Shown here: one piece after another, positions 36,209 to 61,770 of the stretch
Layout: each line of letters starts with the position of its first letter
Numbering within the stretch: position 1 is the first letter of the stretch
DNA from: a virus
Lineage: Duplodnaviria; Caudoviricetes
Virus record (IMG/VR): IMGVR_UViG_3300047160_036266
Span: 192,001 to 256,000 of that record
Length of the DNA: 64,000 nucleotides
Reading direction: 5' to 3' (one strand)
Program-made: the position numbers and the translations under genes
The notes under the pieces: model-generated
Database searches by the model: none
Seen by the model: only the letters and a program-made list of their open reading frames with translations
What the model was told of the DNA's origin: nothing

Positions 36209-37087
36209 TTATGCCTCCAAATTTGCTGGCGGTTCCATTGTTTGTTCTGGCGGTCGTGGCTGACCACGCATCTTATCCAGGTAGCCAGCGACCTTATTTA
36301 CGTTGGTCGTCTTGCCGCCACCCGATGCCTGTTCCGCCGGAAATACGGCCTTCAGCACAGCGGCCAGCATGTCCAGGGCGAACTCTTTGACCTGCGGCGT
36401 GTCCTCGCGCCAGTCATCTATATGGTAGTCTTGAGCGTATTTGTTCTTGAGAGTAATAACCGTGTTCCGCAGGTTGCTCAGCATGTGCGGGGGAAGGGGA
36501 ATGCGGTTCTTGCCGACGATCTTTTTGAGTTGATTCCAGTCGCCTGAACCCTCGTCCTCCTGGTTCATTGCTCGGCCCAATAGCCGGGTGTCCGTGGTCC
36601 GGGCGCTGCCACTGATGTCGGAGTCGGGTAGAATGAGCTTGAGAATGGTGCCCATCATTTGGATGGCGAATTTCTTGGCTGTACCGGCAGGTATATCAAC
36701 CTTGAAGTTGGCCCGGCCTTTGTTTTTGGATACCAGATTGGCAAACTGGTCCTTCGTCTTTTCAACTTCCCCGGCCATCGCGTGTTCGTAGTCGGTGGTA
36801 AGTTCGCCTCTGAGTCGATTTGCTTTGGGTTGAAGGGCCGTAACCATCCCCGTCTTCGGCGCGATACGCACCCGATCAAAAAGGTACTTCAGACGCGAGA
36901 AGTCTGAATTGGTTTCTTCGTCTTCCGGGGCTTCCGGTCGGGGCGGTCTTGGCGCACGCTCAGGCTTGGGTGGAGGAGTGGCTGGCTGCGCCTTGGGGGC
37001 GTCCATTGGATCGCCCGGCGGCATCATGGGGCTGGGAGGCGGGGCTTGTTCGTACAGTTTTCTGCGCCATTGGTTGAGCGTTATCAT
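36209..37087 (-). CDS. Pro-rich protein with internal duplicated helical domain
   Basis: MITLNQWRRKLYE; KKFAIQMMGTILKLILP vs KEFALDMLAAVLKAVFP. Confidence 0.7.
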   Translation of the reverse strand: MITLNQWRRKLYEQAPPPSPMMPPGDPMDAPKAQPATPPPKPERAPRPPRPEAPEDEETNSDFSRLKYLFDRVRIAPKTGMVTALQPKANRLRGELTTDYEHAMAGEVEKTKDQFANLVSKNKGRANFKVDIPAGTAKKFAIQMMGTILKLILPDSDISGSARTTDTRLLGRAMNQEDEGSGDWNQLKKIVGKNRIPLPPHMLSNLRNTVITLKNKYAQDYHIDDWREDTPQVKEFALDMLAAVLKAVFPAEQASGGGKTTNVNKVAGYLDKMRGQPRPPEQTMEPPANLEA

Positions 37088-47558: not shown

Positions 47559-47593
47559 TTAATAAGAATTGACGGCAGGTGCATATATAAACA

Positions 47594-47712
47594 AAAGAAG
47601 ATCGGAAAGCACACACTTCCCGACCCTCTTCTGCTTAATTAGAAAGGCTAATAAGGATGAGTCTTAGACCTTTCGACAACGATTCACCGGGGTGACGGAT
47701 CACCCCGGTTTT
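47594..47712 (+). ncRNA. Candidate small structured RNA / 12-aa peptide transcript
   Basis: ATATATA at 47583, 5' hairpin, RBS + MSLRPFDNDSPG* (47657-47695), terminal hairpin. Confidence 0.35.
47686..47712. terminator. Intrinsic terminator
   Basis: accggggtga-cgga-tcaccccggt followed by ttt. Confidence 0.8.
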
Positions 47713-47721
47713 CCATTTATA

Positions 47722-48063
47722 TTACTTGATGTTCGTTTCGCCCGAACCAACCGTGATGATTGCCCAATTCACCGTCGAGCCAACAGGGCTTGTAAAGGTG
47801 AACTGCCCCGGAACTCGTGCGGTCAGGAACGGGGCCGTGGCGTTGTTGGAGGTCAATACCACGATATAGGCAGCGGTGCCGCCTGGGATCGGGGGATGGT
47901 CAACGGTCGTGGATGTGGCGGTAACGGACGGACACGTTCCAGCCGCCATAACGCGAGGACCGATCAAGTGACCGACGCCCAAAGTGGTGTGCGGCGAACC
48001 TCGTGCCATCCCGTCTTGTACCGAACCCCAGCCACTTACACCAGTTACACTTGTTGCTCCCAT
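47722..48063 (-). CDS. Small beta-rich putative virion protein
   Basis: AAGGAG RBS; MGATSVTGVSG..LGVGHLIGPRVMAAGT. Confidence 0.7.
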   Translation of the reverse strand: MGATSVTGVSGWGSVQDGMARGSPHTTLGVGHLIGPRVMAAGTCPSVTATSTTVDHPPIPGGTAAYIVVLTSNNATAPFLTARVPGQFTFTSPVGSTVNWAIITVGSGETNIK

Positions 48064-48180
48064 TGATCTGTTCTCCTTTAGAAATATGAGCTAGTTCTCC
48101 TTTTATCTAAGCACCTGACGGCGAAAATATTGTCGTTTCAGAGCAAATAGTTCTGGCGGCAAAACCACTATATTTACTGT

Positions 48181-48792
48181 ATGAATGACGTGGAATTTCA
48201 AATGACAGGCGACCAAACGCAGACCGTCTTGGGTACGCTGCTGGGAACGGGCAGCATTATATTGCCGAAGGCGGGGAAGAACGCTTATCTGCAAATGCGA
48301 CAAAAGAAGAGTGGCGACGTGAACTGGCTCCGCTGCAAAGCAGAGGAACTGGTGAACATGGCTCGTCCCCATCCCTTTGTGGAGGACAAGGACAGTTGGC
48401 ATTGGGCGAGCGTGGCGAATCCGGTCTGGAATAGGTTTCTGCGGCTCTGCTATGAGAACGGGACGAAGACGGTGACGATGGACTGGTTGGACCCCTTACG
48501 CGACCGGGGCCACGCCGTCTGGTTCTTGGACAAGGGTTTGTATGACCAAAAGACCAGGCGAGTGGTCCTTAAAACCGCCTGGTTTGGGGAGAAAGGCACC
48601 AGCCTTATTCAGAAATACTTTGACCTGTGCGGTTACGAGTGCGAAGTGGAAGTCAATCGCAGCGTGTGGCGATTGGTATTTTCCCAGCAGGGCAGCGAGG
48701 AGTACCTGAAGCTTATTCTTCCTTGTTTTCCCAAATATCTTTTGGATCAAGCCTCTTTTCCCAATCCATCGCATATTCGTAAGTCGGGGTAA
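48181..48792 (+). CDS. Degenerate LAGLIDADG endonuclease-like protein
   Basis: VLGTLLGTGSI and AVWFLDKG occupy the two LAGLIDADG helices. Confidence 0.7.
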   Translation: MNDVEFQMTGDQTQTVLGTLLGTGSIILPKAGKNAYLQMRQKKSGDVNWLRCKAEELVNMARPHPFVEDKDSWHWASVANPVWNRFLRLCYENGTKTVTMDWLDPLRDRGHAVWFLDKGLYDQKTRRVVLKTAWFGEKGTSLIQKYFDLCGYECEVEVNRSVWRLVFSQQGSEEYLKLILPCFPKYLLDQASFPNPSHIRKSG

Positions 48793-49114
48793 TGATTTTG
48801 CAATTGCATACCCGACTGGTGGTATACCGTTTGTTTGTCAGGTCATATATTTCGAGCGCCATCAGGTAGCCGATCCAGTGCAATCTGATGGTGGAACCCC
48901 CGAACGTCGAGCCGGAGATGTGGACTTCGGTGGCGGTCGGCCAGTATTTCCCTCCCTGGAGCAAAAAGCGGTTGCCATAGTCCAGCTTCTCCAGTTTATA
49001 GAGGGTGTTCATCGTTTGCACTTCCAGCTTGGTTCCCGGCTCCAGCTTGGAAAGGTCGATGCCCCCAACCTTGTCCAGTCGCTTCGACAATTCCACGATC
49101 TTGTCTAAATCCAT
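48713..49114 (-). CDS. Hypothetical protein
   Basis: ORF coupled to upstream C39 gene. Confidence 0.65.
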   Translation of the reverse strand: MDLDKIVELSKRLDKVGGIDLSKLEPGTKLEVQTMNTLYKLEKLDYGNRFLLQGGKYWPTATEVHISGSTFGGSTIRLHWIGYLMALEIYDLTNKRYTTSRVCNCKIITPTYEYAMDWEKRLDPKDIWENKEE

Positions 49115-49115
49115 G

Positions 49116-49682
49116 TCAACCCACCTTGGCAGCACGGTAAATGTACCCCGGCTTACCGGACTTCCAGATCGCTATGCCGTAGCGGTTGTAGGTATTGCCG
49201 AAGTAGTCCTCGTCGTGCCAACGCTCCACGAACTGCTTATATGTTAAGTACCCCCGCTTCCCAGGCAAAGAGGAGTCCTCAAAATAGATGTGCTTTTTGT
49301 CATAACCGATGGCTGTGACATAATGGCCGCTGTGGTTCTTGTCCCGATACTTGCTCTTCTTGCCCCAAGCCTGGATGGGGCAAATGACCGGCTTCCCTTC
49401 ATCAAGCCATGCCTTTAATGCTGCGATTTCCATGTCGTGGGCTGCTCTGGCTCGCAGACCAACACTGCGGGCGAAATAGATGATGTTCTCAGGCACGGTG
49501 CCCGCCTTCGCGTCCGCCTCCAGGTACGGGATGTAGTCGAGGTCGCAGCGCATTCCGACCCCCCAATAGCAGCAGACTGCGTGCAAGGCCGCTGCACCAC
49601 ACGAGTACGTCGTGTGCTGTATGACTTCCGGCACCCATACCTTGATCGCTTCATCAGCGATGCGTATAAACCCCTTCGCCAT
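49116..49682 (-). CDS. Stand-alone C39-family cysteine peptidase
   Basis: QHTTYSCG, SGHYVTAIGYD, YFEDS. Confidence 0.85.
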   Translation of the reverse strand: MAKGFIRIADEAIKVWVPEVIQHTTYSCGAAALHAVCCYWGVGMRCDLDYIPYLEADAKAGTVPENIIYFARSVGLRARAAHDMEIAALKAWLDEGKPVICPIQAWGKKSKYRDKNHSGHYVTAIGYDKKHIYFEDSSLPGKRGYLTYKQFVERWHDEDYFGNTYNRYGIAIWKSGKPGYIYRAAKVG

Positions 49683-49772
49683 GTACCTCCAGGCTCTTCC
49701 ATACTCTTATATATTGTCGAGAGGCTGCGTTTCAGAACAATTCACACCTATAATTATAAAGAGGAGCATGGC

Positions 49773-50474
49773 ATGAAGTCATATAACCAGTGGAGCAACG
49801 ATCAAAATATCCACGGCAACCCTATTCCGTGGCCCACGCGCAATAATACCAACCCGTGGGGCGTTCCACAGAATCCTTACCAACCCAATATTCCGCCAAA
49901 CAATATGGGCATCGGCAAGCTCGGAACGAATATAAACATCGGACGTAAGTTCAGGTGGACTCTGGAGTTAAAATACAAGGACTCCACCCTGCTTGGCCCC
50001 TTCTTTGTTAAAGTGGCCAGCCGTCCGAACCTGAATATTGAAGAGACGACCGTGGACTACCTATCGGACAAATATTGGGTGGCCGGGCAGTCACGCTGGC
50101 AAGATTTGCAGGTGAGCGCTTATATTGACGGGCAGAGTGCCGGCGACCCCAAGACCGCCGAACATCAAATAGTCAATGGTATGGGAGAGTTGGCCTACGC
50201 GCAGGGTTTGACCGGGATGTTACGTCTATGGGACGGCTGCGGTACGGAACTGGAAAATTGGGAATTGAAGAATATGTTTTGCCAGAACATCCAGAGCGAT
50301 CTGGAGTACAGCAGCAGCGATATAACGGTGGAAATGACCTTCAAATACAGCGAGGCGAAATATTCCTCAACCATGCAACCTTGGACCCCTGGTGAGTTGG
50401 CTGCGAAGAAGCGGCAGGCACTCATTGACAAGGCGAGGGCCTATGCCCCGCACTTACGGTTCACTGAATTTTAG
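49773..50474 (+). CDS. T4 gp19-like tail tube protein paralogue with N/P/Q-rich extension
   Basis: RKFRW, VKVASRPNLNIEET, W.AG..RWQDLQV, LWDGCG..LENWEL, LEYSSSD..VEMTFKY. Confidence 0.75.
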   Translation: MKSYNQWSNDQNIHGNPIPWPTRNNTNPWGVPQNPYQPNIPPNNMGIGKLGTNINIGRKFRWTLELKYKDSTLLGPFFVKVASRPNLNIEETTVDYLSDKYWVAGQSRWQDLQVSAYIDGQSAGDPKTAEHQIVNGMGELAYAQGLTGMLRLWDGCGTELENWELKNMFCQNIQSDLEYSSSDITVEMTFKYSEAKYSSTMQPWTPGELAAKKRQALIDKARAYAPHLRFTEF

Positions 50475-51081
50475 TGGCTCGGACGAGGTATTGCGGGTCG
50501 GTGTCAGGGGTGCTGTGCCAGCAGATGATACCCAGGTGGTTAGTCTTCTCCCCGCTGGTTTCCTTGTCGTGCCAGCGGTTCTCGAAGTCCTCGTAAGATA
50601 GTTTGCCCCGGTCGCCTTCGATGGACGGGTCTTCAAAGTAGATGTTTTCGCCGTCGTAACCGATGGCGACGACGTAGTGGCCGCTTTCGTCGGTTTTGTA
50701 GTATTTGGGTGCGCCCCAGGCTTGAATATTGCAGATGACCGGCCATTGCTTATCAATATAAGACAGGAGTTCGTTGAGGGACATATCCTCTTTTTTGACG
50801 GCGTTGAGGCCGAAGAATTTGGCCCCTCGCACAATATTGTCCGGCTCAGTGCCTTCCTTTTCGTTGGTTTTGAGGGCCTTGATGAAATCGTCTTCACTGT
50901 CGGGGCCAAGTTTGTAGAACTCGCAAATGGCACGCAGGGCGGCGGCACCGCAGCTAAAGCTTTTTTGCTGTCGCACGCTTGGCAGTGGTATCTTGACATA
51001 CTGGAGTATTTCCCCGTTCGGGACTTGGTGCTTCTTCTCTTCCATGAGAAACCATTCCTTGAAAGTAACCCGTGCATTCAT
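50461..51081 (-). CDS. Stand-alone C39-family cysteine peptidase with capsid-targeting-like N-terminus
   Basis: VTFKEWFLMEE; QQKSFSCG, SGHYVVAIGYD, YFEDP. Confidence 0.85.
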   Translation of the reverse strand: MNARVTFKEWFLMEEKKHQVPNGEILQYVKIPLPSVRQQKSFSCGAAALRAICEFYKLGPDSEDDFIKALKTNEKEGTEPDNIVRGAKFFGLNAVKKEDMSLNELLSYIDKQWPVICNIQAWGAPKYYKTDESGHYVVAIGYDGENIYFEDPSIEGDRGKLSYEDFENRWHDKETSGEKTNHLGIICWHSTPDTDPQYLVRATKIQ

Positions 51082-51090
51082 GTGCCTCCA

Positions 51091-51474
51091 TTACCACCCG
51101 TGTTTTTTGGCGATGCGGTCGGCACACTTCTTAATTCCTCCTGGGTTGGGCGCATGACGGGAATATGCCTTGGCGGCACGGACCTGCTTCTTGTTGGACA
51201 CAGGGAAGCTCTTGCCAGGTGCGCCGCCGGACGGGCCGCAGAACGGTCCTTCGCCGGGGCCGCTGGTTTCCCGCTCCTTGCCGACGTTGGAGCCGCCGGG
51301 CTTGTCATGCACGTCCTTGTGTTCCCGCTCGACCAGCCATTCCTTGAACTTCTTCCAGCCCGCACGCTTCATCTTGGCCTTGTGGGCGGCAGACTCACCC
51401 TCTTCCTCATCATGGTCGAGGTCGATGCCGGTACGTTCTTCCTCACGTTCCAGTTCTCGGTGTGATTTCTTCAT
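51091..51474 (-). CDS. Small charged protein
   Basis: Internal FKEWLVERE; FCGPSGGAPGKSFPV..AKAYSRHAPNP; ATATATA 4 nt upstream. Confidence 0.7.
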   Translation of the reverse strand: MKKSHRELEREEERTGIDLDHDEEEGESAAHKAKMKRAGWKKFKEWLVEREHKDVHDKPGGSNVGKERETSGPGEGPFCGPSGGAPGKSFPVSNKKQVRAAKAYSRHAPNPGGIKKCADRIAKKHGW

Positions 51475-51490
51475 GACCTATATATCAGCG

Positions 51491-51754
51491 CTATTTCTTT
51501 TTCTGCTTCTTGGGACCAGGGGCCGCAGGCATGGGCGGCTTCGCCCCGCCGGGCGCACCACCTACGGGGGCGGCACCGCCCGTCTGCATGGTGCCGGGGC
51601 ACGGACCTGGGCCACCGGCGCAGGAACTCTTGCTGTGGTAGGTTGCTGAGTCGGAAGGTCGCTGGCCGGCTGGAAACTTACTGGCGTCGGCCTTGTCGTC
51701 GGCCACCATCAAGCCTTCACGGACCAGCCACTCCTGAAATGAAAGAAACCCCAT
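51491..51754 (-). CDS. Small Gly/Pro-rich protein with capsid-targeting-like N-terminus
   Basis: MGFLSFQEWLVRE; CTACATA 4 nt upstream. Confidence 0.7.
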   Translation of the reverse strand: MGFLSFQEWLVREGLMVADDKADASKFPAGQRPSDSATYHSKSSCAGGPGPCPGTMQTGGAAPVGGAPGGAKPPMPAAPGPKKQKKK

Positions 51755-51784
51755 GCACTATGTAGTAGTGCATGGGGTTTCTTT
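51742..51784. promoter_or_regulatory. Perfect 19-bp inverted repeat covering a late promoter and start codon
   Basis: aaagaaaccccatgcacta-tgtag-tagtgcatggggtttcttt. Confidence 0.75.
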
Positions 51785-51798
51785 ATTGGGCGAACGGA

Positions 51799-52350
51799 CT
51801 ACTTCTTCTTGGGGGTGGCGTAGCTACCCCGGCCTGGCCGGGTCAGGACGCCCTCGCTGACCATCCGGCTGAGTTCGACGGAGGGGTTGCTGCGGCGGTT
51901 CTTCTTTTCAAAGAACTCCTTGATGTCCTGGTTGCTCGCCACCCCGCCCTGCTCCTTGATGAAGTCCAGAATCAACTGGCGGGCGGTGATGCCTGGCTCC
52001 TCTTCCGGTGGCGGTTGCTCCTCCAGGCCCAGCAGCCCAAGTTGTTGCTGCAAGGAGGAAAAGAGCCGGTCTGACGCCGCCCGGTGCAGCTTGATCTGCT
52101 CCTCGTGCCAGGCCATGCGGGTGCGAATCTTCTCCACCGCTGCCTGAAGCTGACTGACCTCTTCGGGAACCTCTTCGGCGGGTGCCGATGGGGTGTCTGG
52201 GGGAACAACAGGGGCCTCGACCTTCGCCGCCGAAACTTCCGGGGCGGGGTCGGGCGTTATTTCATCCGTGCTGGCCGGCGGCGCTTGTTCAGCAGCGGGT
52301 GCTTCCTGCTCATCTTCTTCCGGCGACCGCTTTTGCGGCTTCTTGGTCAT
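51799..52350 (-). CDS. Coiled-coil + winged-helix protein
   Basis: GGAGG RBS; ILDFIKEQGGVASNQDIKE..SVELSRMVSEGVLTRPGRGSY. Confidence 0.7.
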   Translation of the reverse strand: MTKKPQKRSPEEDEQEAPAAEQAPPASTDEITPDPAPEVSAAKVEAPVVPPDTPSAPAEEVPEEVSQLQAAVEKIRTRMAWHEEQIKLHRAASDRLFSSLQQQLGLLGLEEQPPPEEEPGITARQLILDFIKEQGGVASNQDIKEFFEKKNRRSNPSVELSRMVSEGVLTRPGRGSYATPKKK

Positions 52351-52430
52351 GTTGCCTCCAAAGGGGAAAAAGTTGGACAGTGACGCTCCCTGGAGCATAA
52401 GGGATGCCACCGCCGTTTGCAACATGATTT

Positions 52431-52643
52431 TCAGAAGGTCAACCAGGGATCGTCAATGCTGCGGTACTTGGGCTTCTTCGGCTCGCGTACCGGCACTGGT
52501 CCCGTCTCCTCCTGCGGCGGCGGTTGCTGGGGCTGGATCAGATGATGCTTCTTCTTGTTCGCCCCGACGTTTACAACTGGCGTGGACTGAAGTGGAATGT
52601 ACGGGCAGTAGAAGTACCCTGCGTTTCGGATTATGTTTCCCAT
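52431..52643 (-). CDS. Mini-protein carrying the C-terminal motif of the major capsid protein
   Basis: GYFYCPYIPLQSTPVV vs MCP GYFYCPYVPLTQTPVV; TATAAT + GGGGAG upstream. Confidence 0.7.
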   Translation of the reverse strand: MGNIIRNAGYFYCPYIPLQSTPVVNVGANKKKHHLIQPQQPPPQEETGPVPVREPKKPKYRSIDDPWLTF

Positions 52644-52661
52644 CTCCCCTGCATTATAAGG

Positions 52662-52689
52662 ACGGGGCGGACATCATGCCCGCCCCGTG
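52662..52689. terminator. Hairpin between 52697 and 52431 genes
   Basis: acggggcgg...ccgccccgt stem. Confidence 0.55.
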
Positions 52690-52696
52690 TTCGTTT

Positions 52697-52978
52697 TTAT
52701 TGTCCCGGCTGGGTCGGCAATGACCAGTGGGCCGGGTAGACCGTCTCATCCGAATCCTCCCTGGGCTTGTACCAGATGCGATTCAGACGGCCATACCAGA
52801 ACTGTTCGTCAAGCTCGGCCCGCAGGGTCCACATATCGGTCTTGGGAACCTTGCCGGCGTACTCCTCGTCCGTCTGCGGCCCGCCGTAGCGGTTGACCGC
52901 TGGCACGGTCTTGGCGTTCATGGTGTTGTCGTATATCTTGACAAACTTCTTTTTCTCCTCGATCCAATGATTTTTCAT
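52697..52978 (-). CDS. Hypothetical protein (MKNHW start)
   Basis: AGAAAGGATAAGG upstream of ATG. Confidence 0.65.
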   Translation of the reverse strand: MKNHWIEEKKKFVKIYDNTMNAKTVPAVNRYGGPQTDEEYAGKVPKTDMWTLRAELDEQFWYGRLNRIWYKPREDSDETVYPAHWSLPTQPGQ

Positions 52979-53001
52979 CCTTATCCTTTCTAAATATGAA
53001 T

Positions 53002-53202
53002 ATGCCATTCGTCAGCAAAGCGCAACGACGTGCCTGTTATGCCCGCAACGACCCGAATTGGGATTGCGGTGAGTGGGAGTCCCACACACACGGCGACTTA
53101 CCCGAACGCAAGAAGAAGATGAGGAAATCCTTTAAGGAGTGGGTTCTTGAGAGGGAGGCTCGTTCTGGAGCCGCTGACCCTCCAGCAGAACGGCGTGCAT
53201 AA
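53002..53202 (+). CDS. Small basic phage protein
   Basis: CTAAATA 5 nt upstream; MPFVSKAQRR; KSFKEWVLERE. Confidence 0.65.
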   Translation: MPFVSKAQRRACYARNDPNWDCGEWESHTHGDLPERKKKMRKSFKEWVLEREARSGAADPPAERRA

Positions 53203-53329
53203 ACTGCCCGCAGCCCAGCTTTTCGAGGAGGCCCAGCTTGGCCCACTTTTCACTGCACTCTTTCGCCTCATTCAAGAACCGCTTACTGATCTCTTTCTTT
53301 CGGCGCTGTCCTAACCAATGGTTCTTCAT
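53132..53329 (-). CDS. Mini-protein homologous to the major capsid N-terminal propeptide
   Basis: RFLNEAKE..W..GLLE..AVLLEGQRLQNE vs MCP RFLNEARE..W..GLLE..AVLLENQRLMNE; CTATATA 5 nt upstream. Confidence 0.75.
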   Translation of the reverse strand: MKNHWLGQRRKKEISKRFLNEAKECSEKWAKLGLLEKLGCGQFMHAVLLEGQRLQNEPPSQEPTP

Positions 53330-53352
53330 GGACTTATATAGTTAGCCTTTCT

Positions 53353-53733
53353 TCAAAATGCCTCCTCATACGGCGGCGGATCGTCGCCGCCGAAGAACTG
53401 GACCCGCTTCTTGATCGCGTGGAGGTCCATCTTGTTTATTTTCCAGTACCACACCTGCCAGTCCTTTACCTCCTCTTCCGTGAAGTCGGGGGTGCGGATA
53501 ATCATGCCCGCCGGGTAGCACTCATAGACCCTGGCGTACATCGCCAGTTCGGCTTCGGAGAAGTCCTCGGTCTGGATGCGGGCACCGATGACGTAGTGTT
53601 CTTCGGTGGCCGCATAGAGCGCCCGCCAGTGGGCAATTTCCTCATCCGTGATGGGATGCCGGGATAAACCCCGGATCATCGACATATTCGAGTGGATGTC
53701 CTGTGCCATCTCGATTGAAGCTCGGATTTTCAT
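53353..53733 (-). CDS. Hypothetical protein with short helical repeats
   Basis: ITDEEIAHW / FSEAELAMY / FTEEEVKDW. Confidence 0.6.
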   Translation of the reverse strand: MKIRASIEMAQDIHSNMSMIRGLSRHPITDEEIAHWRALYAATEEHYVIGARIQTEDFSEAELAMYARVYECYPAGMIIRTPDFTEEEVKDWQVWYWKINKMDLHAIKKRVQFFGGDDPPPYEEAF

Positions 53734-53764
53734 GTTTATACAGGTACGCCAGGAGAACCAGTAG

Positions 53765-54706
53765 TCAAAATATTTTCAGATTTGTTGGTAATTTTTCTAA
53801 ACCATTCGGGAACTCTCGATAATTGAACTCCCGGTGTTTGCCGACGAGGTTGCGAAATTGGTAGTATTTTCTATTTGTTTCCGTGGCATTCCCGCCAAAT
53901 ATTGTCCGTTCTGTCCAGAATTCAAACGGCGTGGCGGTAGCTCTTACTGCGTCAGCTTTGGCCGACACTATTGCGTCTTGCGTTTGCGAGGTTGGCTTTA
54001 TTTCGATTATTCCCGTCTCACCGATGATGGACAAAACACAAAGATCGGCTATGTAGGATTTTGTTTCTTCCGAGTCTGGAAGTTTGTATTTGTATCTCTC
54101 GCTTTCGGAGTAGTACCTGAATATAGAGGGATCGTAGTCGAGCTTGATGAAAGCGGCTAGTTCCAGCAGGGACCGCCACCTAATCGGCCCCCGGCGGTAA
54201 TGGGAATTGCACCCCTTGAGGGGGAAGTAGAGGCCAGAAATGGAGGCACGACGCAATGGAATGTATTTTGCTGTTTCATTGCTGATGGGCCGCATCAGGT
54301 TCCTAACAACGTCCGGCACTTCACAGTTGTCATCAAAGACCCTGTACCAAGTGCTTCCGGGGTGGTCTGCCTTGGTCCGCTTTGTTTCTGGGGAGGACCG
54401 CATCCAGCCAACCACATCCGGGTCGAGAGCGGGGTCGATAACGCTGTACCATGTGCAGTTGGGATGGCGGTCGAATAGGATGAAGGGGTCTTCGATTTCC
54501 TCTATTTCGGGGATTTCCAACTTCCAGGTGTTGGGCCTATTTCTGGCGATTGCTTGGTGAATCTTAAATACCAGGCCACTATGGCGGCTGCGAACTTCAC
54601 CGTGGCCTGAGAAATAATGCTCAAAGCAACACCTGGGAATTTGCGTTTGCGTTGGGCGTGTTTCCTTTGACGCCTTCCTGGCTCTCATCATCATAAATCT
54701 GCCCAT
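53765..54706 (-). CDS. TnsA-N / PD-(D/E)xK endonuclease-like protein
   Basis: SLLELAAFIKLDYDP..YIADLCV..IIEIKP; AT-richer than flanks. Confidence 0.75.
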   Translation of the reverse strand: MGRFMMMRARKASKETRPTQTQIPRCCFEHYFSGHGEVRSRHSGLVFKIHQAIARNRPNTWKLEIPEIEEIEDPFILFDRHPNCTWYSVIDPALDPDVVGWMRSSPETKRTKADHPGSTWYRVFDDNCEVPDVVRNLMRPISNETAKYIPLRRASISGLYFPLKGCNSHYRRGPIRWRSLLELAAFIKLDYDPSIFRYYSESERYKYKLPDSEETKSYIADLCVLSIIGETGIIEIKPTSQTQDAIVSAKADAVRATATPFEFWTERTIFGGNATETNRKYYQFRNLVGKHREFNYREFPNGLEKLPTNLKIF

Positions 54707-54731
54707 GCCCTATTATAAGTGCTGGCAAAAT

Positions 54732-54765
54732 AAAAAGCCCCGGTCAGGCGAGTGCCTGCCGGGGC
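54732..54765 (-). terminator. Intrinsic terminator of HU gene
   Basis: gccccgg-caggc..gcctg-ccggggc followed by T-run on minus strand. Confidence 0.75.
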
Positions 54766-54789
54766 CTGCGAGCCGAAGAGATGTGCCGA

Positions 54790-55125
54790 TCAGATGGAAA
54801 CGGCGTCCTTGACGGCCTTGAGGGGCCGGACCCGCACGACATTGCGAGCAGGCTTGGCGGCGAAGACATGGGGCTGCTTGGTGAACGGGTGGACGCCGTT
54901 GCGGGCCTTGGTCGCCGGCTTGCGGACGACCCTGAACTTGGCCAGGCCGGGCAGCGCGAAGACCTGGACGTTCTTCTTGCGAAGCTGGTCCAGGGCAATA
55001 CCCGTCAGGGAGTCGATGACATCCCCGACCTGCCGGGCCGTGAGGCCGGTTTCCTCTGCGATCTTGGCCTTTAGCTCACTCTTGGTGAGGGCCTTGCCGC
55101 CCTTGGCGGCTTGACTTTGCGCCAT
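54790..55125 (-). CDS. hup: HU family nucleoid-associated protein
   Basis: LTKSEL..LPGLAKFRVVRKPATKARNGVHPFT..AAKPARNVVRVRPLKAVKDAV. Confidence 0.92.
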   Translation of the reverse strand: MAQSQAAKGGKALTKSELKAKIAEETGLTARQVGDVIDSLTGIALDQLRKKNVQVFALPGLAKFRVVRKPATKARNGVHPFTKQPHVFAAKPARNVVRVRPLKAVKDAVSI

Positions 55126-55175
55126 CCTGTCTCTCCTTTCAAAACATAGTTGCGGGTACGGAGCAAATCATTCCC

Positions 55176-55204
55176 ATTCTACGGTTGAAACCTTCCCCTG
55201 TAAA
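55176..55204 (-). promoter_or_regulatory. Sigma70-type early promoter for HU
   Basis: TTTACA-17 nt-TAGAAT on minus strand. Confidence 0.7.
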
Positions 55205-55232
55205 GTCGGAACGCCGGGTTTTTGCCGGGTTT

Positions 55233-56234
55233 TCAGAAATCGAATAGTACCGGCGTTGGCGTATCCCAATCATGGTTTTCCAGGGTGTGGAGGACGTAGC
55301 GGGCAACGGCGGCTTCGGTGTGGTAGGTCATGCCATGCTGATAGCCCCGGCTGTAGACCTCATAGCAGCGCTCCGGGTCTTTGAGGTAGCTGCGCACCAG
55401 ACTGCCGATATTGCTGGACACGAAACGGCTGCCGTGGTCGGCGTCGATGACCTCGTATTCAACGCAATTGACCCCAGAATGCAGCGGGCACCGCTGTACC
55501 GTGGGCTGTCCGCCACGGAATAGGAGCGTCCGACACAGGGCTTCTGACTCCCGGAAGGCCGAAATCCCGTAGCCGTCGTAAGAAACGGTGGCTCTGGCTT
55601 CGCCCAGGCGATGAGCGTATTCGCCGTAAGGGAGCCGTCCTCCGTGGGGGTCTTGAATGATATTGATGTCGGCCTTGATGCCAGAGCGTCGTACTTCGTC
55701 GGTGATGTTGGCACGGAAGGGGTGGCTGACACCCCAGGATATGAAAAGGTCCACCGGCCTGGCTAGATAGCTGTTTCTGTCGGGAGCCAGCATGTCCGGT
55801 TCCAGGGTGATCGGATAGTCGATGGGGTGATAACTCGACGGGTAGGGGATGTCGGGCAGAAACTCTCGCAAGAGGTAGGGAAAGGACTTTCCCTTCAGGA
55901 ACAACATGAGGTTGGTCTGCTCGACCATGCTCTTGGTCTGGCTGTGCAAGGCGTCGGGGGTAAAGGCCGAATAATACTGCCGCTGCCAGTTGGGCTGCAT
56001 CCGGTTGAACCAGCCGTATTCGGCGCAGTCAATGAAAGCAAAACGGTAGTCCTTCAGTACGTCGAGGTCGCCGTACTGGTATTCAGGGCTGTGGACCGTG
56101 TGATTGAACAGAAGCACATAGTCATACTTCTTGCGGTAGCGATAGAGTTCGGCGCGTACCCCGATCTGCTGACAGCCCCTCCATAGTTTTGCCTCAATGT
56201 GGTTTACTGCGGTTGAGTAAATCCCAAGGTGCAT
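55233..56234 (-). CDS. GT-B glycosyltransferase-like protein
   Basis: VDLFISWG..YAHRLGEARATVSYDGYG..FRESEAL resembles a GT-B C-terminal domain. Confidence 0.55.
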   Translation of the reverse strand: MHLGIYSTAVNHIEAKLWRGCQQIGVRAELYRYRKKYDYVLLFNHTVHSPEYQYGDLDVLKDYRFAFIDCAEYGWFNRMQPNWQRQYYSAFTPDALHSQTKSMVEQTNLMLFLKGKSFPYLLREFLPDIPYPSSYHPIDYPITLEPDMLAPDRNSYLARPVDLFISWGVSHPFRANITDEVRRSGIKADINIIQDPHGGRLPYGEYAHRLGEARATVSYDGYGISAFRESEALCRTLLFRGGQPTVQRCPLHSGVNCVEYEVIDADHGSRFVSSNIGSLVRSYLKDPERCYEVYSRGYQHGMTYHTEAAVARYVLHTLENHDWDTPTPVLFDF

Positions 56235-56240
56235 GGCCGC

Positions 56241-56402
56241 TCATAGCAATCGGAATATTAGAATGACCAGTACGATGACCACCAGGAACCAGATCAAGCC
56301 GCCGCCGTAGTAAACCGGCCCACCACCGCCGTGGTTGTTATAGGCGTGATAGCCGCCAAACAGCACGACAAGGAGCAGAAGCAATATCAAAATCCATAGC
56401 AT
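56241..56402 (-). CDS. Small two-TM membrane protein (not in ORF track)
   Basis: AAGGAGG RBS; MLWILILLLLLVVLFGG..GGGLIWFLVVIVLVILIFRLL (53 aa). Confidence 0.7.
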   Translation of the reverse strand: MLWILILLLLLVVLFGGYHAYNNHGGGGPVYYGGGLIWFLVVIVLVILIFRLL

Positions 56403-56466
56403 AGAGCCTCCTTGGAAAATAAGGGTATGGGAGTATATAGTAGTGGATCAACCAAAGGAGGTAGAC

Positions 56467-56676
56467 ATGATTTCTCTTTCTGCGGCAGTGACGGTCATCA
56501 TCTATTTGATCGTTGCAGGTCTGATCTTCGGTTTGCTCTGGTGGCTCATTGGCTACATTGCGCCCCCGGAGCCGTTTGCCAAGGTCGCCCGTGTGGTGCT
56601 GGCGATCCTTGCCGTTCTCGTGGTAATCGGTATCCTGTTGAGTCTCGTGACGGGTACGCCGGTCTTTAGACCTTGA
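56467..56676 (+). CDS. Small two-TM membrane protein
   Basis: AAGGAGGT RBS; two hydrophobic helices linked by PPEPF. Confidence 0.75.
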   Translation: MISLSAAVTVIIYLIVAGLIFGLLWWLIGYIAPPEPFAKVARVVLAILAVLVVIGILLSLVTGTPVFRP

Positions 56677-56690
56677 CGCCTTCGCTGCCC

Positions 56691-56720
56691 AAACCCAGGC
56701 TTCGGCCTGGGTTTATTTTT
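56691..56720 (+). terminator. Intrinsic terminator
   Basis: aaacccaggc-ttcg-gcctgggttt-attttt. Confidence 0.85.
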
Positions 56721-56728
56721 GCGCATAG

Positions 56729-56757
56729 AAAAACCCCGGTGATTGCTCACCGGGGTT
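56729..56757 (-). terminator. Intrinsic terminator of major capsid gene
   Basis: aaccccggtga-gcaa-tcaccggggtt-ttt on minus strand. Confidence 0.85.
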
Positions 56758-56779
56758 CAGTGTTTCTATTTGAGACTTT

Positions 56780-58216
56780 TTAGATCACAAAATTCGCAAT
56801 TGACATGCGGGCATAGAACTTGGACCCTTCGCGCAAAAGCTTCTTTCCGTATCTGGTAAGTATACCTTTCCGTGGGCAGAAGCTCTCAGGATCAAGCACT
56901 ACCGGCGTCTGGGTCAATGGGACATATGGGCAGTAGAAATATCCGCTATCCATATAACTGTCGCCTTTATAACCCATAAGTATCTGGTTTGTCGGGAATA
57001 GCGGGTCTTTGTAGAGCCGCCAACGGTTGTTGACCGTGCCGACATACTGGATACCCAGAGACGAAGTGAACGTCTCAGACGGGGCGGGCGCGAAACCTGC
57101 GGTGGCCGTCTCGAAGATGGAAGCGACTTCTGGGGAAGTCACGAGCCAGTTCGCACCACCACGCAACGTCTTCCGGTGGACGACGTTGGAGACTTCTACG
57201 ATTTTCACATATAGTGACTCGTACTTCTCTTTGATAGTTTCGCCTAATGCGGTGTTAAAATCCCATGCCGAAACCGTACCGGCATTATTGCGGAGGTCCG
57301 TCAATACTTCACGGTCGATTTCGAGGTTGATTTCCTGGGCCAGAACGGCGGTCAGTTCCGCCTCGGCGTCCAGGTTGTGCTGCGAGCGCAAGTCCTGCTG
57401 AGCCTCATAGCTCCACACTGCCTTGAGCTTACGAGTCTTGGCAGCGATCTCTTCCGACTCAACCACGAGGTTGATTTCGGGGAGGTCTTGCTGGCACTCC
57501 ATGTTATACTCGTAAGACATAACGGCGTGGTTCGCGCCGGGGGCTGCGTTCCACGTCAACGTCATCTCACCCGTGGTGAGGTTCAAGCTACCAGCCGTGG
57601 CGAAGGTCGCCGGGGAGCCGATAGACGTGAAGTTGAACGTGCCAGCCGAAGAAACCACGAAGGTCTGCACGGCGGTAGTGCCCTGGTAAACCGTACCAGT
57701 CACGGTGCCGGCCAGGACGGGCGTATGCTCGAATGGAGCGTATACGGAGGTCGTCACAACGCCGTTATCGGTGCTGGAGGTTTCATTCTGGACAAACTGG
57801 TGTGAATACCAGATGTCCAGGTTGGCAGTACCGTCAGCCAACTGCTGGAGCGAGTTTACGTCGTCAGCCGGGAACCCGGAGTTGTTGTCAGCGCCACGGG
57901 TCGCGCCCTTGTTGGACGAGTACCGGAAGCGCAGGTAGTACACCAACCCGGTCGGGCCAAGCAATGGCTGGACCGACACGATCTTGTTGGCGATCAACTG
58001 CGGGTAAATACGACGAACGAGCGGGATAGAGATGCGCTTGAACTGAGCAATATCGCTCGTGTCCGTAGACACTTCGTTCATGAGGCGCTGGTTTTCGAGA
58101 AGAACTGCACAGGCAGAACGGACATAACGATCCTCAATACCTTCAAGCAGACCAGTACGGCCCCAACGACTCTCTAATTCCCTAGCTTCGTTCAAAAATC
58201 TAGCGTTTGCGTTCAT
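56780..58216 (-). CDS. gp23: Major capsid protein (T4 gp23-like)
   Basis: AVLLENQ, IPLVRR, SVQPLLGP, KTRKLKAVWSYEAQQDL, EINLEIDREV, GYFYCPYVPL, PRKGILTRYG. Confidence 0.97.
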   Translation of the reverse strand: MNANARFLNEARELESRWGRTGLLEGIEDRYVRSACAVLLENQRLMNEVSTDTSDIAQFKRISIPLVRRIYPQLIANKIVSVQPLLGPTGLVYYLRFRYSSNKGATRGADNNSGFPADDVNSLQQLADGTANLDIWYSHQFVQNETSSTDNGVVTTSVYAPFEHTPVLAGTVTGTVYQGTTAVQTFVVSSAGTFNFTSIGSPATFATAGSLNLTTGEMTLTWNAAPGANHAVMSYEYNMECQQDLPEINLVVESEEIAAKTRKLKAVWSYEAQQDLRSQHNLDAEAELTAVLAQEINLEIDREVLTDLRNNAGTVSAWDFNTALGETIKEKYESLYVKIVEVSNVVHRKTLRGGANWLVTSPEVASIFETATAGFAPAPSETFTSSLGIQYVGTVNNRWRLYKDPLFPTNQILMGYKGDSYMDSGYFYCPYVPLTQTPVVLDPESFCPRKGILTRYGKKLLREGSKFYARMSIANFVI

Positions 58217-58241
58217 GTAGTTCCTTTATTAGACCCTCTAA

Positions 58242-59141
58242 TTAGCGGTCCTTTTTGACTCCAGAAAGAACGAGTAGTTCGTTGATTTCACTGTCGGGGT
58301 TGTTATATTCCGCAATAACAACGCCTTCCTCAGTGTTAGTATGTCCTCTCCCCGTTGCGTTCTTCACTTTCTGCACTCTTTCTTTCTGCTCAGTTATAAG
58401 CTGGCCCTTTTTCTGTTCGCTCTTGGCCTGCCTCTGTTCGGTGAGAAGTTCCTGAGCGTGGCGAACCGTCTCATTTAGCTTAGTATTGTCGTTCGATAAA
58501 CGAATATTGCGTGCTTCCATAATGCGAAGCTGGCCACGAAGCTCGTCATTCCCCTTGCGGGCTTCTTCGAGCTTGCTGCTGGTCGCCAGTGCATAGTCCT
58601 CGTCGGACAGGTAATTGGCGGTGATGTCCACGATCTTGTCGAGGGTGACTTTGTGTTCGGCCATGCGGGGGTCGTTGAGTACATCACGCTTGGCCTGCTC
58701 GTATATCTCGGCACCCTTGAACTGGAGGAACTGGTCCACCTTGTCAACGATGTAGTCCTTCATCTCGCCAAGCTTCTTGTCGTACTCCTCGTACATATCA
58801 ACTTCGAGCGTGTTGTTCTTTTCACGCTCTTGGAGGAGCATCTGATAGGCTTCCTCGTAACCCTCTTCCAGCGCCTTGTTGTACTCATCGCGCTGCATTT
58901 CCAGACGGTTCCGCAGGTCGGCAATAATGCCGTATGCCTCCTGATAGCCCTGGTAGGCGGTCTTCTCCGCATTGGACATTTCCTCAGAAAGCTGCTTATA
59001 CGCTTCCTCCAACTTGTCGTTGTACTCAGACTCCAGTTCACGCTTGCTACTTTCCAGCATGTCGTTGACGGCTGAAGCAACCTCGTTGATCTGGTCCTCT
59101 GGCAACAACTTCTTGAGAGCTTCCACTATTTTGTCTGCCAT
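58242..59141 (-). CDS. gp22: Prohead scaffolding protein (gp22-like)
   Basis: Acidic coiled coil between protease and capsid genes; ends ELLVLSGV. Confidence 0.8.
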   Translation of the reverse strand: MADKIVEALKKLLPEDQINEVASAVNDMLESSKRELESEYNDKLEEAYKQLSEEMSNAEKTAYQGYQEAYGIIADLRNRLEMQRDEYNKALEEGYEEAYQMLLQEREKNNTLEVDMYEEYDKKLGEMKDYIVDKVDQFLQFKGAEIYEQAKRDVLNDPRMAEHKVTLDKIVDITANYLSDEDYALATSSKLEEARKGNDELRGQLRIMEARNIRLSNDNTKLNETVRHAQELLTEQRQAKSEQKKGQLITEQKERVQKVKNATGRGHTNTEEGVVIAEYNNPDSEINELLVLSGVKKDR

Positions 59142-59824
59142 TAGCCTAACCTCGCTTTTATGTTGCTAGTGTGTTCTTTGAAAATACCGCCCAAATACGC
59201 AACCAGCACATCTTTATTTACCGTATGTATGCGGCTACCTTCGTTTTTGGACGGGGATTTATCAGAAAATTGGGGCACATACGTTTCCCGCTTGGGGCCG
59301 GTGGCGATCTTCTCTTGGAAGGCGGCGAACGTGCTGGGATCGGCCACAGCGTCAAACGTGATGAGCTTGTAAGACTCACCAATGACGAGGATACCGTTCT
59401 CGTCGGTTCTACCGTTACCAACGCCCCGGCTGCTAATGCCGACTCTTACGCCGTCGTTGAGGAGGCTTCGTAGAATCTTGCCGTGAGGAGTATTAAGTAT
59501 TTCCCCCTCACCCATCAAGGAAGTTCCCTCCCACCACAACTTCGTAATAACGTGGGACGCTTTCTCAAAGTGGATGATACTATCGGTGGGATGATCCAAT
59601 TCACCCACCAGGCCCCTAGCTTTGATAGCATCGTTCAGCTTCTTGATATTTTCATCAAGGACACCGAATGGATACATCCGCTTGTTCTTATTGACCGCAT
59701 CGGCCTCTTGAAACTTGCCACGAAATTTGGTTAAGCCACCAGGGGTGGTCGTCGTAGACTCATTCAAGTTAAGGACGAAGCCGGCATCTAAGCAACAGTC
59801 GATTAACAATACTTCGTCGCTCAT
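59141..59824 (-). CDS. gp21: Prohead maturation protease (T4 gp21-like)
   Basis: FQEADAVNKNKRMYP, GELDHP, SHVITKL, GISSRGVG, FDAVADPS. Confidence 0.95.
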   Translation of the reverse strand: MSDEVLLIDCCLDAGFVLNLNESTTTTPGGLTKFRGKFQEADAVNKNKRMYPFGVLDENIKKLNDAIKARGLVGELDHPTDSIIHFEKASHVITKLWWEGTSLMGEGEILNTPHGKILRSLLNDGVRVGISSRGVGNGRTDENGILVIGESYKLITFDAVADPSTFAAFQEKIATGPKRETYVPQFSDKSPSKNEGSRIHTVNKDVLVAYLGGIFKEHTSNIKARLG

Positions 59825-59832
59825 TTATCTCC

Positions 59833-61770
59833 TTAGCTTTCCTGGTCTGCCTGGCTGCCCAAGTCCTTTCTAGTGGGCTTGATATAACCCTTATCAACCA
59901 CGAGGTTGTCGTTCTTCATCTTGAAGCCCGTGCCGCCGGTCTTCACGAGTTCTTGCGGCACATACGGGTTCTCAAGATTCGGCCAGGTGTCCTTAGACTG
60001 CCACCGGCTGAAGTCGTCCTGCCCGTCATCGACAGCGGACTTCTCCTTCATCTTGTACTCACCGAATGGCTTTGGCACATATGGGTTACGCAACTCTGGG
60101 TAGGTGTCTGAACCGCCATAATTCATCCACGAATTACGCATTTCGTCGTCCAGACGGTTCTTATACGATTTGCCGTCGCTTACCGGCAGTTCGCTGCCCC
60201 AATCACCTGTATACTTGCTTGGGATAGCGCCCACCTGGGCGATCTTGGCCATGTCGGGGTGGTCGCCGCTAACGGTGCGGTAAGCACTGTTCGATACGTC
60301 CCAGGTTTCACTGGAGCGCTCGACGTTCGCTTCGACAATATTCCGTAGCCATTCGGCAATCGTTTCGGCCAGCTTCAAGTCGGGTTCTTCCTGCTTATTG
60401 AGGACCGCTTCGCAATCCATCAAATAGCTGGAGACTTCTGCCCTAGCGGCCTCGTCCCCCTCCTTTTCCACGATGCGATAAACCTCGTGTAAGGCACGGT
60501 ACAGGTCGCTAAATACCCGATACTTGATCTGCTCGGATTCATCCAAACTCGGATAGAATTGATCTGTCACTTCCTTGAATGCTTCGTAGCAGTTATCACA
60601 CTCCACCGTGGGAGTGATCTGCGAGTGGTTGATAATCTTCTTGGCGCGATCAGCGTAGGCGTGGTGCGCCATGCGGAGGATGCCCTCTGCCATGAACTCG
60701 CACTGCTGGTCGTCATAGTTGCGAACGCCCACCGTCTCCAAAGCCTGGGCGATGGTGTTGGCCAACTCTTCTTGGGTTAAGAACAACACGGTCGGCCAGC
60801 GGCCCACAATGTTTTCCAGGGTTTCCTCCAGGGCGCTATTATCTGACACGGCGTTGAAACGCTTGAGTTCCGCCACGGCGCGACAGAATTGAGCGTCTTC
60901 CTTGAGGTTCTTGGCACCCTTGCGCGAGAACTTGAGGTCCGTATTTAGCACGTCCCAATTGAAATTCAGGATTTTTCCTTCGTTCCGCTTGTGCGCCCGT
61001 GGCATACTCACGTCGGTGACGTTACCCTTGTCGTCGCTCTTGACAAAGGAATCCTTCAGGGCCGGGCCAAGGGCCTGATAATCCAGGTAGTCCATGACGT
61101 TTTCCGTCAGGACCGCCCACTCGTTAATCTTGTGCTTCTGGACCTTGCGGGCGTAGACACGCCAGCGCTTGTTGGTACTGCCGCCCAGCTTCTTTTCGGC
61201 TCGGTCCTTTTTGGCTTTCAACTGACCTGCCAGGCCGGCGGACGCCCCCAGACGGCGCTTGGTCTTTCGCATACTGCGGATTCGCTTGGCTACATCCGAA
61301 CGGCTCTGCTTGCGTCCGAACAGGGGGCCGTGTCCGCTGGGCTTGGAAACACTTACGTCAAAGGCTTCGGTAAGAGCAGCGTCCTTCAAAGTACGGCGAG
61401 TTGCCGGCAGACTCATAAACTGACTGAACAGGGCACTGGCCTTGCCGTCGTTATTATCCAGTAGGCTCTCCACGAAGTCGCTGAGAACTTGCTTGGACGA
61501 TTTCTTCTCCGTATCCTCGTCAATTACTAACTCTTCGATCCCCTCGAAAATAATGTGCGACTCGTTCATCCGATAATTGGCGTGAACGAAGCTGCCGCCC
61601 AGGGTTTCGTAGGTCACGTCTGACTCACCAAAGCAGTGGAGCTTCAAGTCGCCAGAACCCAAGGCCCTGGCCAATACGTCTTCGGCCTCGACTAACTCCC
61701 GCTCCGACGCCGAAAGCGAGTCCTTTTCAAACCTCTGAAAGTCCTCGAACTTCATGAGTTTTCTTTTCAT
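59833..61770 (-). CDS. Large prohead core-like protein
   Basis: Directly upstream of gp21; many LxE sites; GGGAG RBS. Confidence 0.65.
   Translation of the reverse strand: MKRKLMKFEDFQRFEKDSLSASERELVEAEDVLARALGSGDLKLHCFGESDVTYETLGGSFVHANYRMNESHIIFEGIEELVIDEDTEKKSSKQVLSDFVESLLDNNDGKASALFSQFMSLPATRRTLKDAALTEAFDVSVSKPSGHGPLFGRKQSRSDVAKRIRSMRKTKRRLGASAGLAGQLKAKKDRAEKKLGGSTNKRWRVYARKVQKHKINEWAVLTENVMDYLDYQALGPALKDSFVKSDDKGNVTDVSMPRAHKRNEGKILNFNWDVLNTDLKFSRKGAKNLKEDAQFCRAVAELKRFNAVSDNSALEETLENIVGRWPTVLFLTQEELANTIAQALETVGVRNYDDQQCEFMAEGILRMAHHAYADRAKKIINHSQITPTVECDNCYEAFKEVTDQFYPSLDESEQIKYRVFSDLYRALHEVYRIVEKEGDEAARAEVSSYLMDCEAVLNKQEEPDLKLAETIAEWLRNIVEANVERSSETWDVSNSAYRTVSGDHPDMAKIAQVGAIPSKYTGDWGSELPVSDGKSYKNRLDDEMRNSWMNYGGSDTYPELRNPYVPKPFGEYKMKEKSAVDDGQDDFSRWQSKDTWPNLENPYVPQELVKTGGTGFKMKNDNLVVDKGYIKPTRKDLGSQADQES

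Follow-up and report, generated by a model that had tools for sequence, protein, structure and literature searches.

Short genes of a huge soil phage that pair major capsid protein segments with conserved terminal motifs

The 343-kb IMG/VR record IMGVR_UViG_3300047160_036266 encodes, besides its major capsid protein (MCP), two tiny ORFs resembling the start and the end of that protein. Are these ORFs the debris of a decayed capsid gene, recent copies of the resident gene, or genes in their own right? We addressed this question with the 64,000-nt stretch at positions 192001-256000 of the record (hereafter the window; coordinates below are those of the window), its relatives in metagenomes and deposited phage genomes.

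Two capsid-like ORFs in the window

The window contains a T4-like head module, with an MCP of the gp23 family (478 aa, Pfam Gp23 E-value = 1.6e-87) that is related to T4 gp23 structures. The nearest GenBank record is the 595-kb uncultured phage LR756511.1 (82% MCP identity). The stretch occurs in soil metagenomes from 17 studies, and the identical mini-proteins are also found on contigs of up to about 670 kb. The features discussed here are the following.

59833..61770, portal-like ORF
59141..59824, prohead protease (phrog_207, E-value = 2.3e-47)
58242..59141, scaffold-like ORF
56780..58216 (-), full-length gp23-family MCP, the source fold of both fragments
53353..54706 (-), ORF o126 plus a TnsA-like endonuclease gene
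53333..53340 (-), TATATAAG box 3 nt before the N-mini ATG, without a Shine-Dalgarno sequence (leaderless-type start signal)
53132..53329 (-), N-mini gene, 65 aa: MKNHWL start, basic stretch, MCP-propeptide-like segment, stop 8 residues after LQNE
53159..53281 (-), segment of N-mini (residues 17-57) resembling MCP residues 6-48
52996..53202 (+), conserved 68-aa gene (MPFVSKAQRRACYA...), its 3' end overlapping N-mini by 71 nt
52697..52979 (-), mid93 gene, 93 aa from its MKNHW start
52662..52688 (-), 12-bp G+C-rich hairpin between the mid93 stop and C-mini (MFE -31.6 kcal/mol, z -2.3), followed by TTATAAT and GGGGAG before the ATG
52431..52643 (-), C-mini gene, 70 aa: MCP-like core, P/Q/K-rich linker, C-terminal tail motif
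52572..52640 (-), core of C-mini (GYFYCPYIPLQSTPVV) resembling MCP residues 418-440
52443..52469 (-), tail motif KYRSIDDPW, 3 residues before the C-mini stop
51799..52425 (-), AbiEi_4-like wHTH/coiled-coil gene (Pfam E-value = 3.4e-7) starting 5 nt after the C-mini stop, with an alternative start at 52350 that has a GGAGG

The N-mini ORF aligns with MCP residues 6-48 (23/48 identities, pairwise E-value = 1e-10), and the C-mini ORF with MCP residues 418-440 (14/23 identities, E-value = 2e-9), matching 13 of 16 residues in the GYFYCPY.PL..TPVV core. A six-frame search of the whole record returned only the MCP and these two places (E-values of 1.3e-5 and 3.4e-5). A permissive tblastn of positions 51000-56700 revealed no other MCP-like stretch in any frame, and blastn revealed no similarity at the DNA level. 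C-mini matches positions 314-332 of the 376-position Pfam Gp23 profile (PF07068) at 18.9 bits, below the curated cut-off of 24.4 bits, and N-mini gives no hit. Both are derived from the family, but they are not capsid proteins. The observation made in the preliminary description of this locus is therefore confirmed, including the strand, the order, the distances (3.45 and 4.1 kb downstream of the MCP stop) and the MKNHW start of the intervening ORF, although that description omitted the plus-strand 68-aa gene. The intervening mid93 shares its N-terminal tag with N-mini and has an ortholog (61% identity by tblastn) in L034, a related locus with a 96% identical MCP. It exhibits no similarity to MCP and was rejected as a capsid piece.

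The two ORFs do not behave as exons of an intron-split capsid gene. No Rfam family was found in 47000-59000, only MCP residues 6-48 and 418-440 are present, and an unrelated gene and an opposite-strand gene lie between them. Nor are they a pair. In L034 the block made of the TnsA-like endonuclease, o126 and N-mini is missing between HU and the 68-aa gene, and the endonuclease is also missing in the contig that carries P0003, a C-mini homologue. The side-by-side position of the two fragments is an accident of this genome.

The C-mini family and its terminal tail

We fetched 80 loci with MCPs 83-100% identical to that of the window. These, together with large relatives, revealed orthologous mini-genes in L034, L016, L038, L211 and the complete 532-kb relative G001 (L188), plus the protein P0003; seven orthologs were recovered from loci. 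All have an MCP C-terminal segment with the core GYFY(A/C)PY(I/V)P...TPVV, a variable linker rich in P, K or E, and the tail (K)K[YFH]RSI[DT]D.W at 3-10 residues before the stop. A search for related loci with the C-mini alignment was dominated by full MCP genes, and was replaced by a tail-only DNA pattern and a profile search limited to short proteins. The strict tail pattern occurs in only 7 IMG/VR contigs. The profile search gave 817 hits (E-value<=1e-3), and of the best 120, 35 carry both core and tail. C-mini belongs to a widespread metagenomic family. We define the family by a GYFY.PY.P...TPVV core near the N-terminus and [YFHW]R[ST]I[DTN][DE].W a few residues before the stop (3 here, 2-17 in the family) in a protein of 60-115 aa, and the window ORF has both. 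The usual form keeps MCP residues from about 410 to 470, so that the window's copy is a shortened member. The window's copy, P0003 and G001 share IPLQSTPVV where MCP has VPLTQTPVV, which points to descent from a common mini-gene rather than repeated capture. Five of the six large relatives examined have an intact copy; the sixth, G005, has a truncated one with a stop. A search of phage genomes for short matches to the gp23 termini had been suggested beforehand: among 50,697 deposited phage records, only 2 of 1,551 with a match have a second place for this segment, one being LR756511.1 and the other not listed. No cultured phage in the collection has these mini-genes.

The gene context is conserved. 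C-mini lies upstream of an AbiEi_4-like wHTH gene on the same strand, which follows it directly in six phages (L034, L038, L016/L158, L188, L213 and L215) and after one 77-aa ORF in a seventh (L217). The order C-mini, wHTH, C39 peptidase, LAGLIDADG holds in the window (52643 down to 48181), in L034 and in the distant contigs L215 and L217, while L213 keeps C-mini, wHTH and LAGLIDADG with no C39 hit on record. No MCP gene lies within the 5-kb flanks fetched for the distant contigs. A complex prediction of C-mini with the neighbouring wHTH protein, using paired 8-row alignments, scored 0.00 without controls being run, and counts neither for nor against binding. AF2 with a 35-row alignment predicts no secondary structure for C-mini (pLDDT 69), with the highest local confidence at the core and at the tail. 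C-mini is best described as a disordered peptide with two short linear motifs.

Neutral evolution had been named in advance as the outcome that would reduce the fragments to debris of a decayed second capsid gene. Such a gene could have been a gp24-like paralog, and debris of illegitimate recombination is a further form of this reading. The substitution patterns are against it. Where dS is measurable, orthologous C-minis give omega values of 0.41, 0.15 and 0.18, and the neighbouring wHTH gene 0.14-0.22. Elsewhere, between the minis and the MCP and between orthologous minis, synonymous differences are saturated (pS 0.71-1.0) whereas pN is 0.14-0.43. Frames stay open, and starts and stops are conserved. 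Population variants for pN/pS were sought in the soil runs, but the contigs were identical and of low depth, and the nine contigs carrying N-mini are near-identical. There is no direct evidence of transcription or translation, since no RNA run contains the stretch. The debris reading finds some support in the absence of N-mini from the closest syntenic relative, in the truncated C-type remnant of G005 and in the larger partial MCP paralogs of L086, another related locus. However, neutral debris would not have kept open frames, boundaries and up to 88% identity to MCP over such divergence. We consider this reading very unlikely, and already largely refuted for C-mini. A gp24-type vertex paralog likewise derives from the major capsid gene and lies downstream of it on the same strand, but gp24 is a full-length fold, whereas these are 23-65-residue pieces with their own starts, tags and purifying selection.

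The fragments are not recent copies of the phage's own MCP either, contrary to what the preliminary description implied. They are equally distant from 82 clade MCPs, so that no recent donor is visible among those sampled. At conserved residues, codon identity is what chance gives (123 observed against 136 expected). Recent duplication, gene conversion or a DNA repeat was rejected on this chance-level codon identity and on the lack of DNA similarity. Active avoidance of shared codons was also rejected (z = -1.5).

The tail is a peptide motif and not a DNA element. At least 16 small ORFs of G001 end in it; in these 16 copies Arg is encoded by CGN and AGR codons, Ser by TCN and AGY codons, and every other position varies synonymously. 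A reversed-pattern control gave zero. Five of the 16 ORFs hold MCP pieces, one a prohead-protease fragment, one a PrkA fragment, one a gp32-like core, and one an N/P-rich piece that by eye resembles the N-terminal extension of the window's tail-tube-like ORF. The rest have no recognisable parent; two of them begin with a hydrophobic stretch that looks like a transmembrane segment, although this was not formally predicted. Together with tail-less pieces in G001 and a further piece (residues 105-240) in G004, another large relative, the clade's MCP fragments cover residues 1-58, 55-102, 105-240, 237-310, 318-368, 403-448 and 438-463. No common neighbour gene of the tail ORFs was found in G001. 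The window's own genome (G000) has three tail ORFs: C-mini, a truncated gp32 paralog (G000:99953-100669) and a fragment of a phrog_5931 protein (G000:150121-150588). The main gp32 homolog (G000:61944-62996) ends in an ordinary acidic domain without the motif, so that the tail is not the C-terminal tip of the main SSB.

The position of the tail, always 2-17 codons (usually 2-10) before the stop and often overlapping the next start codon, might suggest a nascent-chain signal controlling translation of the downstream gene, the upstream coding sequence being filler. Some tail ORFs of G001 stand in tandem with ATGA or overlapping stop-start junctions, and only 5 nt separate C-mini from the wHTH gene. 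A purely cis-acting role does not explain why the MCP-like core is conserved in more than 35 family members, or why 5 of 16 G001 tail ORFs hold MCP pieces. The tail also ends 225-240-aa gp32 paralogs, and the residues after the W vary in number and kind. This possibility appears very doubtful.

The N-mini gene

L038 carries a 64-aa homolog of N-mini on the other strand (L038:12653-12847(-)). It exhibits the start MKNYWL, a basic stretch, FLDEA...W...LEGQRLSNE and a stop 9 residues later. The tag, the G in LEGQRL (MCP has LENQRL) and the short ending are shared derived features, and a CG pair is also shared. Between the two genes pN is 0.40 against a pS of 0.98. We define this family by an MKN[HY]WL start, FL.EA...W...LEGQRL.NE and a stop within about 10 residues; the window ORF fulfils the definition, but only two strict members were found. 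N-mini thus rests on a single close homolog plus looser relatives, and its last 71 nt are antisense to the conserved 68-aa gene (80% aa identity to L034, omega 0.16 at dS 0.84), so that its C-terminus may be accidental. Among the looser relatives, G005 has KNFWL plus the MCP N-terminal segment, and in G001 and the locus L223 this segment precedes a Cys-rich, zinc-ribbon-like domain, behaving as a portable N-terminal module. The start MKN[HY]W[LI] heads seven small ORFs in the window's genome, including mid93, and three in a row in G001.

N-mini has the TATATAAG box, a TATA box placed directly before the ATG as used in this genome: 18 of 100 such boxes lie 0-8 nt before an ATG that opens an ORF of at least 40 aa, and the portal gene has the same box further upstream. 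The minis lack the TAATTAG leader shared by the MCP and portal genes, and a sigma-70 promoter scan gave no more than chance.

By the shared W..LLEG and ENQ motifs, and without an alignment to T4 gp23, the MCP-like segment of N-mini corresponds to part of the T4 gp23 N-terminal region. These 65 residues are removed by gp21, and small core proteins (gp67, gp68) are degraded with them (PMC9958956). T4 proteins bearing capsid-targeting sequences and minor prohead core proteins (IPI-III, Alt, gp67, gp68) are likewise small, carry short terminal signals, enter the prohead core and are cut by the prohead protease. PHROG and Pfam searches showed no sequence relationship with them, and N-mini imitates the MCP propeptide itself. 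A T4-type targeting signal would be followed by a protease site (L/I-x-E). The MKNHWL tag is followed by E at the right place in only some carriers (WIEE, WLDE), N-mini having WLGQ, and this pattern, in the absence of data on packaging or cleavage, settles membership neither way.

Possible roles of the tagged fragments

We interpret both ORFs, with moderate confidence, as separately expressed, selected protein-coding mini-genes, each joining one conserved linear segment of the gp23-type capsid protein to a clade-specific terminal peptide. What the analysis demonstrates is the homology to MCP, the family membership, the conserved synteny, the purifying selection, the conservation of the tail at the peptide level and the predicted disorder of C-mini. 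The rest is inference, function not having been measured. We infer that they work as two-motif "bait plus tag" mimics, in which resemblance to an MCP segment is itself the selected property. The MCP-derived segment would engage whatever normally recognises that segment of newly made capsid protein, either a phage assembly component or a host factor or sensor, and the terminal tag would dock onto a common, still unidentified partner. No binding partner is known for either motif. We further infer that N-mini mimics the MCP propeptide on the prohead scaffold and is probably cut at LQNE, which is only a putative protease site, and that C-mini acts together with the wHTH gene translated just downstream of it. 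The interpretation in the preliminary description is partly supported. Its view that the ORFs have their own expression signals is borne out, and the orthologs, the frames kept open despite saturated synonymous sites, the omega values for the C type and the start signals indicate separate genes rather than debris. It treated the two as copies of the phage's own MCP and missed the terminal tags, the defining feature. Its functional proposals (decoys, assembly or size modulators, exclusion factors) are neither tested nor excluded.

Head assembly fits N-mini best. In this view N-mini would be a free propeptide occupying MCP-binding sites on the scaffold and degraded by the prohead protease, like gp67 and gp68, and C-type fragments would insert at MCP interfaces and tune lattice size or timing. 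The TATATAAG box shared with the portal gene, the MCP N-terminal modules on zinc-ribbon-like proteins and the tailed prohead-protease fragment are compatible with this. On the other hand, in several phages C-mini is linked to a wHTH/C39 module and is not near head genes. Tagged gp32 and PrkA fragments, and tagged ORFs with hydrophobic N-termini, are unrelated to heads, so that the family's role is not specific to head assembly. Disordered 23-residue cores are unlikely lattice parts. As a general account this is doubtful. Encapsulin cargo-loading peptides offer a comparable architecture, with diverse N-terminal parts, a flexible linker and a conserved C-terminal peptide of roughly 10 residues in a system built on an HK97-fold shell. 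No sequence likeness with them is known, the tail also sits on a gp32 core and on ORFs with a hydrophobic N-terminal stretch, and binding to the shell was not assayed.

The range of parent proteins fits instead the decoying of host factors or sensors, the tagged fragments titrating or disabling sensors that read conserved phage epitopes, and the tail acting as a common warhead or recruiting motif. MCP, prohead protease, a gp32-like SSB and the N-extension of a tail-tube-like protein belong to protein classes reported as defence triggers, and Avs sensing of MCP and tail tube has been described (10.64898/2026.01.04.697583). The fragments are the most conserved MCP segments and are held close to MCP in sequence. 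A 29-residue T4 gp23 peptide (Gol) is enough to engage EF-Tu and Lit (PMC3014915), a case of a short linear capsid piece that is by itself a ligand and is read by a host defence. However, Gol is part of gp23 and not a separate gene, it involves no tag, and the window's fragments cover other segments; only one mini of G001 covers the region that aligns with the first quarter of T4 gp23. The Avs sensors in that preprint recognise whole conserved folds, which disordered pieces of 25-60 residues cannot mimic, and a Gol-like peptide would activate a Lit-type defence rather than block it. PrkA fragments and tagged ORFs with hydrophobic N-termini or of unknown origin do not fit, and the host and its defences are unknown. 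We hold this reading to be unlikely, though no observation here tests it. Phage mimics or decoys against host defence share the idea of a small protein imitating another molecule to occupy its binding partner, but those known imitate DNA or signalling molecules, or are folded inhibitors.

Exclusion of co-infecting relatives or satellites, by dominant-negative pieces poisoning capsid or other oligomer assembly, is a further untested and very unlikely possibility. The fragments come from oligomeric proteins (MCP, protease, SSB) and differ from the resident MCP by 12-57%. Yet their equal distance from all 82 sampled clade MCPs reveals no preferred target, and they would also meet the resident MCP.

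A more speculative extension, which we regard as improbable but not excluded, is that huge soil phages keep a modular library in which short pieces of their own core proteins (capsid, prohead protease, SSB, tail-tube extension) are each fused to one common docking peptide (YRSIDDPW, or the N-terminal MKNHWL). The bait would find whatever host sensor or factor reads that protein, and the tag would bring a common partner that neutralises or relocates it, a programmable counter-defence built from self-fragments.

Literature searches found no description of capsid-fragment mini-genes, nor, in the papers we could search, of a library of tagged pieces of a phage's own proteins. Short proteins made of pieces of a virus's own capsid protein, kept by selection and capped with a shared peptide tag, are not part of any described phage system that we could find. 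They also warn annotators that short "Gp23" hits in metagenomes are not all truncated capsid genes. If the tag is a docking signal, these families define a new modular principle in the largest phages, and a 9-residue peptide would give a handle for fishing out its partner. If the baits are decoys, the families would show directly which segments of core phage proteins host immunity reads. If they act in assembly, they bear on how very large capsids are built.

Genes surrounding the two mini-genes

The regions flanking N-mini and C-mini, the mini-genes resembling N- and C-terminal segments of the major capsid protein (MCP), contain the following genes (window positions):
52996..53202 (+), conserved 68-aa gene (MPFVSKAQRRACYA...CGEW...KSFKEWVLERE)
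53353..54706 (-), TnsA-like endonuclease gene and o126
50461..51081 and 49116..49682, two paralogous C39-like peptidases
49770..50474, tail-tube-like ORF with an N/P-rich extension (phrog_4542, 1.3e-10)
48181..48792, LAGLIDADG_2 endonuclease

The 68-aa gene lies on the strand opposite to N-mini and was skipped by gene callers in favour of the overlapping N-mini. It is 80% identical in L034, a relative of this phage, with an omega of 0.16. The TnsA-like endonuclease gene (Pfam Tn7_TnsA-like_N, 1.7e-3; phrog_218, 3e-9) and o126 form, together with N-mini, an indel relative to L034, whereas the endonuclease alone is absent in the contig carrying the C-mini ortholog P0003. It may be a mobile, homing-type gene. 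The two C39-like peptidases flank the tail-tube-like ORF, and the order C-mini, wHTH, C39, LAGLIDADG recurs in distant contigs.

Terminal motifs and start signals

An N-terminal motif MKN[HY]W[LI], followed by a basic stretch, heads seven unrelated small ORFs in the genome containing the window (G000:245329, 244978, 63844, 45934, 21568, 164151 and 163263, all on the minus strand) and three tandem ORFs in the complete relative G001 (286352-287630). It may be a second terminal tag family. Another motif, [ST]F[KQ]EW[LF]..E, recurs at or near the N-termini of o87, o127 and C39_206 (gene starts at window 51754, 51474 and 51081, minus strand) and inside the 68-aa gene (53118-53150, plus strand). This motif resembles the T4 capsid-targeting sequence MKTYQEFIAE, a likeness that was not put to a test.

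The C-terminal tail of C-mini is also found on other genes. In G001, tail-tagged mini-genes stand in tandem with overlapping stop and start codons, three in a row and two in a row (517817-518509 and 351097-351617). Outside the window, a 238-aa paralog of gp32 (G000:99953-100669, minus strand) has its acidic C-terminal domain replaced by ...KKGRVYRSIDAEWEV, while the main gp32 (G000:61944-62996) is intact. G001 has the same kind of gene at 36315-36992.

Across the whole genome, TATA[TA]A-type boxes lie 0-8 nt before the ATG of an ORF of at least 40 aa in 18 of 100 occurrences, those in the window being at 53340, 51484, 49713 and 61831. This suggests leaderless transcripts from a T4-late-like promoter.

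Other capsid-like segments

The relative L086 carries larger partial MCP paralogs (L086:9841-11557; residues 255-473, 1-91 and 252-476, at 28-34% identity) about 3.4 to 5 kb downstream of its MCP. They may be intermediate or independent capsid-derived genes. In G001 (475461-475757, minus strand) and in the locus L223 (3001-3381), MCP N-terminal propeptide-like segments are fused to Cys-rich, zinc-ribbon-like C-terminal domains. In a PHROG scan of the window MCP and C-mini, small PHROG families with profiles of 43-128 positions (phrog_12830, 13936, 14392, 27117) match short MCP segments. Short capsid-like ORFs may therefore also exist in deposited phages, perhaps as exons or fragments.
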